A stretch of 64,000 nucleotides of DNA, from the NCBI GenBank assembly GCA_964016885.1, contig OZ024743.1, positions 171,678,001 to 171,742,000 on the forward strand. Direction: 5' to 3'. Positions within the stretch are counted from its first letter, which is position 1. Each line of letters begins with the position of its first letter. Positions 1 to 46,042 of this stretch are shown here, in pieces. The translations under genes were made by a program, and so were the position numbers. The notes beneath the pieces were generated by a model. It was not told the DNA's origin. It did not search any database and saw only the letters and a list, made by a program, of their open reading frames with translations. Origin of the DNA: Eledone cirrhosa (lineage: Eukaryota).

Positions 1-1453
1 CCAACAGCGTCGTCGGGCGCTGGACGGACGGACCGATTAAATTGCTAGGGGTCTGGTTCGGTCCGGACCTCCAGACGGACAAAAACTGGGACGAGGTGAC
101 GAGCAGGGTGGCTTCTCTCACCCAGAAATGGGCAGAGAGGAACCTATCCCTGAAAGGTCGAGCGGAGGTGGCTAACGAGTACATCGCGTCCGTCATCTAC
201 TACCGCCTGACCGTCGTACCTTGTCCTAAGCCCCGCCTGACTGCGCGGAGCGTTTGCTCTTTCGCTTTTTGTGGAAGGGACGCGCTCCGATGGTCAGGCG
301 GTCCATCCGCTGTCAACACCCGCTACGTGGAAGGCTGGGCATGCCGTGGCTGATGATGCGCAGACACGCGCTCAGGCTACGACATCTCCACCTCTTCCTC
401 GACGGTGATCAGGTGTGGTCGCCGTTTGCTAGACACGTCTTTCCCCAGCTCGTCTCCTTGACGCAGCTGCTGTCCTGGGTCAAGCGAAGACCGAGAGGGA
501 GAGCTTGGAGACTGGAATGTCTTCAGGCACTCACAGCCCTCGACCAATCGGGCAATGTGATCGGTGGAAACTCCACCTTGGCGTTCTATAGAGGATTAGT
601 GGAGGGGAAGAGCGACGACGTACTTGGAGAAACTCTAGGCGTCGACGAAAATCAACTAGCCAATCTTTTCGGAAGGACTTTCGGGCCGGGGCCTATGGAC
701 AACTTCCAGAAATCCCTGGCCTGGCAGTGCTACCGAGGAGCTTTGCCAGTTCGGGATAAACTCTACAGGCATGGAAGTGCCGTCAGACGGGCATGTCCTA
801 GATGCGCGCAGGGCGACGAAACCGTCCTGCACGCATTCGTCCAGTGTCCGAGCATTGCTGACTTGTGGGTTTATGTCGAACACCTACTGTCACGTGTAGG
901 ACGGATCCGGCTATCAGCTGAGTCCATCGTGAGGATTGCCCCGCCGCCTTCCTTTAGTCGGGAAGGGCAGGCAGTTTTTATCTGTCTGGTGGCCATGGCG
1001 AAAGAGATAGTATGGTGGACACGTTTGAAAGGGCTGAAGACGTGCACTTACCTCTTCGGTGATGCCCTAATTAACTTTTTCAAATTTCATTTGAAAAGGA
1101 AAATCAGGGTAGAGAGTGAAGTGCTCTCTTCCCAGCATTTTGTTGAAAGATGGGTGAGAGAAGCATGTATGGCCCGAGTGAATGGACCTACTCTGAGTAT
1201 GTGTCTGTAAATTGAAGGTGGAAAACTGGGAGAGGGCACTTGCCCTAGTGGTCAGGGTCACTGTGGTCTTTTAATGGGCTTTCTCCACAAATATCCCTCG
1301 GAAGTCTCCACCCTATTGGAGAATTTTTCTTTGTTATTTTATTACATCCTCTGTTTTTTTACACGCAGAAATGCCCATTTGTACCGTCCTGTATTGTCCT
1401 GTACTGTCCTTAATGTCTACTTTATGTAAACCCTTGTGGTTAATAAAGAAAAC
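1..1453 (+). mobile_element. 3' part of Tx1-clade (L1-group) non-LTR retrotransposon, (ATT)n-tailed family
   Basis: ORFs 42-353 and 254-1210 give the post-RT region (LGVWFG, LSLKGRAEV, GGLGMP-like) and CCHC motif CPRC..ETVLHAFVQC, with one frameshift; 3'UTR ends in stem-loop, AATAAA, (ATT)n. Confidence 0.9.
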
Positions 1454-1488
1454 ATTATTATTATTATTATTATTATTATTATTATTAT
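1454..1488. repeat. (ATT)n microsatellite shared by the 3' ends of a Tx1 (+) and an R4 (-) element
   Basis: direct reading. Confidence 0.95.
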
Positions 1489-1499
1489 TTTCATTATTT

Positions 1500-43219: not shown

Positions 43220-44992
43220 TATCTCTCTACCAGACGTGTGTAACTTCGCGGAGAAGTTTCCATTATTTTATGTAAGAAAAAACGTGATTTTTCAGTTAAA
43301 TTTTATATTATTGTGTAACTTGACCCCCCGCCTGGACCTTCAGATGGTGGGTCAACTCATTTTCGCCCCTACAGGGGCGAAATATTCGTTTGAAAAATGT
43401 TTTCTCCATCGAATTTAAAAAAGAAAATATCGTAAGAAGTTTGATTAGGTTATGAACGCTGCGTTCAACGATAATGGTGGTGGAGAGTCGGTAAGACTAC
43501 ATAGCTCGCAGTCAACATCGTCTTCTTCCCTAGATACTATGGAGATGGAAGAATAACAACAACAATAACAACAATAATGACAACACCACCAACACGGATA
43601 ATTCCACAAAGAAACCAAAAATATCATTTGCACAGACAGTTAAAAAAAGGAGGAACTGACATATCTCGACATAACAAATGCCAAACAACTTTTAAAGGAC
43701 GCTAGGAGATATGTCACTTTCGAAAAAAATGGTGCTTTCAGCATCAATTCTCCGGTAGAAATTCACAAGGAAACTGCTCTCAAAACGATAGTTTTTAGGA
43801 CAGTTTCCAATTCTACCCGAAAATCAGTCCAATTGTCACAGAAATAAATTGAACTGATTTTCAAAAATTCAATGAATGATATTGCATTCATTCAAAGAAG
43901 CAAACTCTTTGGGAGTATTTCGGTACTCATGAAGGATCAATTGACGGCCCAAAATTACTCTGTGTCGCCAATTGTATCCAACCTGTATACCTTTTTCCCT
44001 ACATACATGGGAAAAAGGACACAAAAGATTAAAATCACGAGTGTCACACCAACGTTGAACATATGGTGGATACTGTGCGGCTTCATCAATTTTGATGAAG
44101 ACAGAATACTGTCAGTAGGAAAGTTCCCAGAGATGTATTCAATGGGACCAGTATTGAAGTTCTGGTGCAAATGAGCCCAGAGCGAATAGCTATGATCCCT
44201 CAACGTGTACTCCTGGACGGACTCACCTACATAAACTTTTCGGTTGAGGGTAGGCGGCCTTCATGTTACCACTGCTTTAGCAGGGGTCACCTGAGGGCTT
44301 CCTGTCCTAAATTAATGAGTAAAAAAAAGGCTCTTCTGCCGACACCCATCAAAACAAACCAACCACCAACACCACCACCACAACAACAACACCAACGCAC
44401 AAAAATAACCACAACAAACACAGTCCCACCCAATCCCACTCCATCTAAAACCACTGCAAAATCACATACAGACACAACAGCACCCCAAGACATACCCCTC
44501 CCCAATCACACAGATGATACAACAGATGAGGCTATCTCGCCATCACCCAGTGAAGACGAGGGAGAACCCCATCGCCCGAAAAGAAAGAAAAGACATCACA
44601 AAAGCAAAAAACCAGCAAACACTACCACAAACATACAACCACCAACACAAACAACAACAACATCACAAAAAAAATCCGCCTCCTGAAAACAAAATACCTA
44701 CAACAAAACGAAAGCACACACAAGAACTACAGACAAAAACAAACACAACACAAGAAAATTACACTTACACTTACATAAACACTGAAAACAAAACACTAAT
44801 GGAGACCATCACGAACAACCCTTCGGTGAAAACCGAAGGGAAAACTTTCGCCTACTCTATTAAAAATAACAAAAAACTGAACCTAAAACTGATTAGGGTC
44901 CCTATACAAACTTATAGGTCCCTAAAAGAAACATTTGAAAAGGATGTGGGGAATTCCTGCGTGAAACCACTTAACCGCGTCCTTCTCAAATG
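43220..44992 (+). mobile_element. Tx1 family B 5' part (5'UTR + ORF1), 3' part missing
   Basis: Collinear with 37135-39276, with a deletion spanning the SINE site; breaks off after VKPLNRVLLKC. Confidence 0.88.
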
Positions 44993-45089
44993 TGGAATAA
45001 GTACGTTGAGTGCTTGAATTGAATTGCATCGATATTTACCTTAAGTGTCTATCTATCTATTTATCTATCTATCTATATATAAATGCAAG

Positions 45090-46042
45090 AAGATCCGGAA
45101 AACTGGGAGACTGGCACACTGAGTGTGCTCAGGCGCTCAGGGCTCTCTGGCAAGCGGGCCAGGCCATCGGTGGAGAATCCACCTCATCATTCTATAGAGG
45201 GCTGGTGGCTAGCAGGGGCGATGACACCCTTGGAGAGTCGCTGGACATGGAAGAAGACGAACTGGCCAGCCTGTTCGGTAGGACTTTCGGCCCAGGACCA
45301 ATGGACAACTTCCAGAAGTCACTGGCCTGGCAGTGCTACCGGGGGGCTCTACCCGTTCGAGAGAGGCTCTACAGACACGGGCGCCCGGGCAGGGATCCCT
45401 CAAAAAAGATTTGCCCTAGATGCGTGCGTCACGAAGAAACCGTTGCGCACGCATTGGTGCAATGTCCGGGCGTGGCTGATCTGTGGGGCTACGCCGAACG
45501 ACTGCTGTCGCGGGTGGCGCCGATTAAATTGACCGCCGAGTCCGTGATGACAATCAAACCGCCTCCCCTCTTCACAAAGGAAGCAAAGGCGGTTTTTCTG
45601 TGCGTAATAGCCATGTTGAAAGAGGTTGTTTGGTGGACACGATTGAAAGGTCTGAGGTCAGGCAACTTCCTCTCTGGCCATAGTCTGGTCTACTTCTTCC
45701 GATATCACTTCGGAAGAAGGATAAGAATGGAGAGAGAGGTGCTTGGCCACAGGCAGTTTTATGAAAGGTGGGTGATAGTGGCGAGAATGGCTCGTGTAAA
45801 TGGGCCTTCTCTGTATACCATCCTGTAGCTAAAGAAGTAAAGGAGAGGGGAGCACCTTCTCCATGTGCTCCCCGGGCAAAGGATTGCACACTTTTTCGGG
45901 GGTGTGTGCAACCCTCATCACGTCCCCTCCCTTTTGAGGTTATTTTCGATTATTTTCATGTTACACCCTTTTTACTCGATTATATGTAAACTCCCCCTTT
46001 GTATTTGTCCCTTCTTTTTATGCCTGTATGGTAAATAAAGAA
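45090..46042 (+). mobile_element. 5'-truncated Tx1 family A copy with up to 23-bp TSD
   Basis: Nearly identical to 36164-37110; ATCTATCTATATATAAATGCAAG at 45067-45089 and 46043-46065. Confidence 0.92.

Follow-up and report, generated by a model that had tools for sequence, protein, structure and literature searches.

A lineage-restricted pentaloop hairpin at the 3' end of Tx1-related LINEs, a candidate signal for the start of reverse transcription

Long interspersed nuclear elements (LINEs) of the stringent type, such as UnaL2 from the eel and ZfL2-1 and ZfL2-2 from zebrafish (L2 clade), or SART1 from the silkworm (R1 clade), carry near their 3' end a small stem-loop that is shared with short interspersed nuclear elements (SINEs) and followed by short repeats. 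These stem-loops are bound by the protein of the second open reading frame (ORF2p) with loop specificity (PMC4176376; PMC3747384), and that of zebrafish L2 is essential as well as loop-specific (PMC4176376). Within the L1 group, the monocot pair LINE1-1_ZM/ZmSINE2-3 has a conserved, covarying and SINE-shared 3' hairpin, and the Chlamydomonas pair L1-1_CR/SINEX-3_CR shares a poly(A)-ended 3' end between LINE and SINE (PMC3472496; PMC3747384). Here, we describe a hairpin with a stem of 3-5 bp and a Y-N-N-R-U pentaloop that one lineage of Tx1-related LINEs has conserved at its 3' end and that we found in a 64,000-nucleotide stretch of Eledone cirrhosa DNA (contig OZ024743.1, positions 171,678,001 to 171,742,000), which we call the window and number from its first letter. 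Stringent-type tails are already known from L2, R1 and plant L1, a kind to which this animal-lineage hairpin would probably belong. It differs from those of UnaL2, ZfL2 and SART1 in belonging to another LINE clade, in having AATAAA after the stem, and in a loop whose bases 1 and 4 covary as a pair, its function being predicted from sequence; the L1-group pairs, in turn, come from plants and algae, with a 5'-UCU-3' loop and a CGAG flank. Our search, which left Repbase, the 2004 Tx1 survey and supplementary files outside its range, found no published description of such a hairpin in an animal lineage of the Tx1 or L1 type.

The window is repeat-rich animal DNA and contains eight 3' ends of LINEs with an apurinic endonuclease-like (APE) domain, a reverse transcriptase (RT) and a zf-RVT domain. 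We name them by the first A of their AATAAA: E1 (1442, plus strand), E2 (3386, minus), E3 (3712, minus), E4 (11463, minus), E5 (31246, plus), E6 (37101, plus), E7 (43116, plus) and E8 (46034, plus). They form five families (E1/E4, E2, E3, E5/E7 and E6/E8), and nucleotide identity in the second open reading frame (ORF2) is 64-82% among the four families that can be compared. Defined as a 3-bp stem with a closing C-G and a second G/C pair, the hairpin precedes AATAAA at 8/8 element ends and at 0/188 of the other AATAAA sites of the window. RCCYNTRTGGY, a pattern that was itself drawn from these sites, has 10 occurrences where 1.41 are expected. The original prediction listed seven of these hairpins, all of them exact in sequence, position and strand. 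In each, the loop is Y-N-T-R-T, 5 nt long, and AATAAA lies 0-1 nt away. The hairpin of E7 is an eighth, missing from that list.

In E1, the C-terminal part of ORF2 with its zf-RVT domain (230..1210, plus strand) is followed by a 3' untranslated region (UTR, 1211-1453) holding a 4-bp hairpin at 1429..1441, AATAAA at 1442-1447, GAAAAC and then (ATT)n at 1454-1503; its family member E4 has the hairpin at 11464..11476 (minus strand), with AATAAA at 11463-11458 and again (ATT)n. The E3 hairpin (3713..3725, minus) has four G-C pairs around the loop UCUAU, before AATAAA at 3712-3707. E2, some 330 nt long and truncated on its 5' side, has a 3-bp hairpin at 3388..3398 (minus) and AATAAA at 3386-3381. 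Its start abuts the E3 AATAAA (interval 3376-3712, minus), a position that looks like an insertion into the E3 tail. On the plus strand, E5 preserves the C-terminal half of ORF2 (29672..31018), truncated on its 5' side at a (TCTA)n run, a 3' UTR at 31019-31256, the hairpin at 31234..31244, AATAAA at 31246-31251 and (TATC)n at 31258-31327, and E7 has its hairpin at 43104..43114, AATAAA at 43116-43121 and (ATCT)n at 43125-43229. E6 (31501..36885, plus) comprises an ORF1 with a CCHC-type knuckle motif, read from the sequence, and a frameshifted ORF2, whose APE endonuclease was recognized by Pfam and whose RT and C-terminus were assigned by similarity to the other copies; its hairpin at 37088..37100 includes one G-U pair and is followed by AATAAA at 37101-37106 and (TATC)n. 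In E8, the hairpin and a 9-nt spacer, AATAAAGAA, reach to the mapped 3' end of the element (46021..46042, plus).

The Pfam matches of these LINEs (Exo_endo_phos, RVT_1 and zf-RVT) fit the layout of the L1/Tx1 group, with ORF1, ORF2 and target-site duplications (TSDs), and the best match of ORF2 in the PDB is human L1 ORF2p (E=5e-73). The families of the Tx1 clade (Tx1L, Keno, Kibi, Koshi and Tx1-Mar) have the same APE-RT-zinc-binding ORF2 and a preference for target sequences (PMC4494074), and this last trait is also present in the elements of the window: (TATC)n/(TC)n runs are where the 3' ends of E5, E6, E7 and E8 are found, along with five 5' junctions, and E1 and E4 abut (ATT)n. The location of E5-E8 in (TATC)n is comparable to that of Kibi in (TC)n and Koshi in (TTC)n (PMC4494074). 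The 3' UTRs of the window, of some 190-245 nt, share TTTTACWCG, CCCTATTGG and pyrimidine tracts and are homologous along their full length, contrary to the earlier statement that they differ outside the hairpin.

Homologues of about 40% identity exist in public assemblies. To look beyond the window, relatives were fetched with a back-translated ORF2 protein motif that is blind to the hairpin. The search returned 73 loci, 67 of which encode relatives and 66 of which extend to the end of ORF2. All 66 lie on host-like contigs of one bacterial metagenome-assembled genome (G001), as two families in head-to-tail arrays (A and B), with an identity to the window copies of 38-42% in ORF2 and, in most cases, open ORF2 frames of 1,140-1,180 aa. 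About 700 nt past ORF2, 64 of the 66 have GGC-CTNGT-GCC, the two misses being cut short. In these relatives, the pentaloop is followed by a second hairpin (xxTGTA...TACAxx), which is 95% paired and shows double changes at 3/7 pairs, and only then by AATAAA. In quick trees, arrays A and B form a single clade with the copies of the window (support 99-100), and the window copies group with the arrays and P0001. The loop is therefore probably older than the split of the three lineages, and it has been kept across these branches although UTR length varies from about 240 to more than 700 nt. Apart from the tail, the array units (contigs C3-C15 and C17-C19, loci L002-L073; 66 mostly intact copies of about 6.4-6.8 kb) are separated by short sequences that are TSDs wherever this can be checked. 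In the 5' UTR, a hairpin with the closing stem TGACC(C)...(G)GGTCA and a variable interior is common to E6, E7, the next partial copy (31440-31473, 37231-37264 and 43321-43354, plus strand) and array A (L006, L014, L021 and L025).

The stems of the window have two invariant inner pairs (CC and GG), a third pair that may be A-U, G-C or G-U, and a fourth that is a mismatch in 2/5 families. When the relatives are added, the 15 distinct ends show double changes at 4/5 pairs, with a covariation score of 0.503 that is beaten by none of 500 shuffles, and slid controls reach at most 0.145. Pair 2 is C-G in the window and G-C in the relatives. The loop contributes as well, since its bases 1 and 4 are complementary in every row (C-G in 12 and U-A in 3 of 15), base 5 is always U, and most rows have U or C at base 3, one subfamily having A. 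The U-A state occurs in E3 and in E6/E8, which are not sisters; E5, with C-G, lies between them on the tree, and two double switches are therefore needed. Permutation at the level of families, which ignores phylogeny, gives P=0.033 for the window and P=0.0015 for all seven families when the 1-4 pair is included, and the covariation score with this pair counted is 0.603, with double changes at four positions and 0/500 shuffles reaching it. A pairing of the upstream U-tract with AAUAAAGAAA was set aside, as one of its sides is invariant and the arrays lack the tract. Other UTR helices with double changes are predicted (window 1211-1452, 31019-31256 and 36886-37111), among them GGAGYAC/GTRCTCC in E5-E8 and, in E1/E2/E4, a long-range helix that closes the UTR; the long-range helices rest on just 2-3 independent sequences, too few to judge.

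This covariation points to a loop in which bases 1 and 4 would pair and base 5 would be flipped out, as in the CUNG-like or CNGG(N) pentaloops of the hepatitis B virus SL-alpha and the Smaug recognition element; SAM-domain proteins bind some of these pentaloops (PMC2275152). Such a fold could also be the site of a host RNA-binding protein acting in export, localisation or stability, which LINE and SINE would both exploit. We regard this as improbable, given that base 3 is never the G of CNGG (15/15 rows, with a C-G closing pair here), that a fixed position beside the mapped 3' end suits priming better, and that an Rfam search of the window, which would include families such as the histone 3' stem-loop, returned none at gathering score. 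A further possibility is that the motif acts as DNA, either as a spaced palindrome to which a host factor binds or as part of an insertion target that the element regenerates itself. Elements do stack head to tail (E3 to E2, E5 to E7, and the G001 arrays). The palindrome sequence, however, flips while its pairing persists, and the G-U pair in the E6/E8 stem works solely on the sense strand, as is consistent with an RNA. The first insertions in the array contigs C17 and C18, moreover, took place at host sites that differ from one another and have no motif, which rules out self-targeting at AATAAA for them; a role as DNA is accordingly the least probable of the alternatives weighed here, and a very remote one.

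The same pentaloop is found in a SINE that is about 187 nt long and contains a B-box-like motif. All five of its window copies terminate with GGC-loop-GCC and then an A-rich strand of 13 nt, and AATAAA is absent behind the hairpin. The most complete copy (28512..28698, minus strand; B-box-like motif GTTCAAATCC) has its pentaloop at 28535-28525, before the A-rich spacer, and a 9-nt TSD. The others have it at 8495..8505 (plus; GGC-CTTGT-GCC), at 27385..27395 (plus), with a flank like that of the 8495 copy and perhaps not an independent insertion, at 37567..37577 (minus), with a 12-nt TSD, and at 47363..47373 (minus), with the loop CATGT and a 17-nt TSD. The TSDs of three copies, of 9-17 nt, begin with ATTATT. 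A stricter pattern, GGCCTHGTGCC, occurs 4 times in the window against 0.04 expected, and the loop as defined from the window LINEs is enriched in the last 54-60 nt of the SINE and the arrays (shuffle P 0.001-0.0035). The stem form of the SINE is that of the arrays, and its tail resembles those of E1/E4. No further copies were found in the genome contigs, the viral contigs or G001.

The ends of the copies are informative about the start of reverse transcription. Poly(A) is absent at all eight window ends and at the array ends listed, and the TSDs begin 0-3 nt after AATAAA in E8 and in the arrays of C17 and C18. In E8, whose 3' end lies 9 nt past the stem, the right TSD (46043..46065, plus strand; 23 nt) matches a left copy at 45067-45089, and the duplications of C17 and C18 (18 and 16 nt) start straight after AATAAA. 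A canonical AAUAAA places cleavage and poly(A) further downstream. Because the copies nevertheless end near AATAAA, reverse transcription must begin internally, at a defined place and independently of poly(A).

The position of the hairpin, abutting AATAAA at 8/8 window ends with U-rich and TGTA tracts upstream, also agrees with a part in host 3'-end processing, where it would present AAUAAA or protect the RNA end and ORF2p would not read it. We take these tracts to resemble known upstream elements of poly(A) signals. Even so, we consider this explanation unlikely, though the least unlikely of the alternatives, since the SINE retains the loop with no AATAAA after it, a second hairpin parts the two in the relatives, distant L1/Tx1 tails use AATAAA with no pentaloop (0/21), and the absence of copied poly(A) would be left unexplained.

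We therefore favor, with a probability of about 0.65, the reading in which the hairpin is a cis signal of the stringent type, bound by ORF2p, which would thereby fix where reverse transcription starts. The nearest solved protein, human L1 ORF2p, cradles an RNA stem beside a 15-nt single strand, and with the Alu stem-loop the stem and the A-rich strand set initiation, an unpaired stem scattering the site (PMC10830416). The ORF2p of this lineage would grip the stem, and the A-rich strand of 7-13 nt behind the last stem would reach the active site, so that reverse transcription would start a few bases downstream of the hairpin and no poly(A) would be copied. Priming would take place on the target DNA, where read-through repeats may help in the families flanked by (TATC)n and (ATT)n. 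AATAAA would then play a double role, as A-rich spacer and probably as RNA polymerase II cleavage signal, which a SINE transcribed by RNA polymerase III would not need. In contrast, human L1 needs about 20-25 A and copies poly(A), and its 3' UTR has no such stem (PMC10830416). The original prediction of a cis RNA signal gains indirect support from the conservation of the hairpin, with a flipped pair, in relatives at 38-42% ORF2 identity, from poly(A)-free insertions with a 3' end fixed a few bases past it, and from the SINE with the same loop; it fails as a claim on all Tx1 elements. A wider proposal is more tentative, and we lean against holding it in full: an animal ORF2p of the L1/Tx1 type would recognize a CUNG-like pentaloop, disregard poly(A) and begin at a measured distance from the stem, and it would also drive a tRNA-SINE by which the loop was taken over.

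Several observations weigh against the favored reading. The stems on their own do not covary significantly within the window (one row per family, 8/10 cells paired, permutation P=0.17), because CC/GG never vary and pair 4 is mismatched in 2/5 families. The pair-2 flip is one single evolutionary event, the hairpin alone is marginally stable (-2.0 to -7.9 kcal/mol), and whole UTRs are no more stable than their shuffled versions (z +0.9 to -1.7). The distant copies all come from one assembly and two families, and the spacing between pentaloop and AATAAA varies, given the second hairpin in the relatives. SINE and LINE, a candidate pair, have only about 11 nt plus the A-rich spacer in common, and the motif was relaxed after the SINE and array ends had been seen. 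A covariance model trained on the window ends recovered only those eight ends, with no SINE or array ends at E<=10, and the homology of these therefore rests on position, loop and pairing. Together with the few independent families, the stem-only result and this negative search would suit a short primary motif, kept by descent, whose outer bases pair by chance. We think this quite improbable, more so than a host protein site, in view of four positions with double changes, the loop pair among them, and of the retention of the hairpin in three branches of the clade at about 40% ORF2 identity.

The hairpin is restricted to this lineage and is not general to Tx1 elements. The window's own lineage had no match in the genome or viral contigs searched, and the ORF2 motif GVWFGPDLQ of this clade gave 0 matches in metagenome contigs. 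At least 116 matches to an RT motif were obtained from metagenomes, 80 of them with flanking DNA, and identity was some 23-35% where the match was long. An open frame of at least 430 aa after the motif and a tail of more than 80 nt were present in 35 of these, and 21 of the tails had AATAAA; the pentaloop, the only hairpin that this comparison covers, was found in the 60 nt before AATAAA in 0/21, four of which belong to one family. The assertion that the hairpin marks every Tx1 family is hence true of the window and does not extend beyond it. The Keno family targets the U2 gene (PMC4494074), and a Keno-like, Tx1-type element inside a U2 small nuclear RNA gene, with a U5 gene nearby (L160, 5370-5544), has no pentaloop. 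In a quick RT tree, built with no named Tx1 reference families, the lineage (support 100) grouped with this element (91), apart from L1 rows that we presume, by our own assignment, to be of the vertebrate type. Three viral-collection contigs of about 200 kb (L143-L145) contain truncated L1-type RT frames, and, among contigs of four runs aligned to the E5 tail, those of run X5 have a far higher depth over the last 60 nt than in the middle of the UTR, depth not being equal to copy number.

Other mobile elements share the window. Two unrelated RT elements with a restriction-like C-terminal motif (9045-11418, plus strand, and about 1550-3377, minus), presumably R4/Dong-like, sit in the (AAT)n tail of E4 and beside E1/E2, and their ends have no pentaloop. 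Helitron fragments lie at 48553-51257 (plus; Helitron_like_N and PIF1). An open reading frame of 510 aa at 54855-56387 (plus), with RT-like and GIY-YIG-like motifs and no Pfam match, is one that we take to be Penelope-like, and a broken relative of it (22576-24768, minus) is enclosed by long inverted repeats (21698-26021). Large foldback elements, near-perfect inverted repeats whose arms reach up to 812 nt, occur at 17084-20384 and 52799-54239.

As far as the consulted parts of these sources go, the 2013 table of SINE/LINE pairs holds no animal L1 or Tx1 partner (PMC3747384), the partners of bivalve SINEs are CR1, CR1-Zenon, L2 and Nimb (PMC11481361; PMC4758252), and crocodilian Tx1-Mar is thought to mobilise the poly(A)-tailed SINEU, which has no known tail-sharing LINE (PMC4494074). 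If the wider proposal is true, the lineage described here would add an animal SINE-LINE tail partnership in the L1/Tx1 group. A compact template signal for precise, poly(A)-free insertions would also be of interest to LINE-based gene-insertion engineering. So far, plants and algae have supplied the arguments in the open debate on whether the elements of the L1 group were first stringent readers of their tails and relaxed to poly(A) afterwards (PMC3472496). With its natural compensatory variants, its near-intact copies, a candidate signal of 13 nt and a SINE that has the same loop, this lineage makes the question directly testable in an animal element related to human L1 ORF2p. If the wider proposal is true, that element would be a living model for the stringent stage that is proposed to have come before the poly(A)-only recognition of L1.

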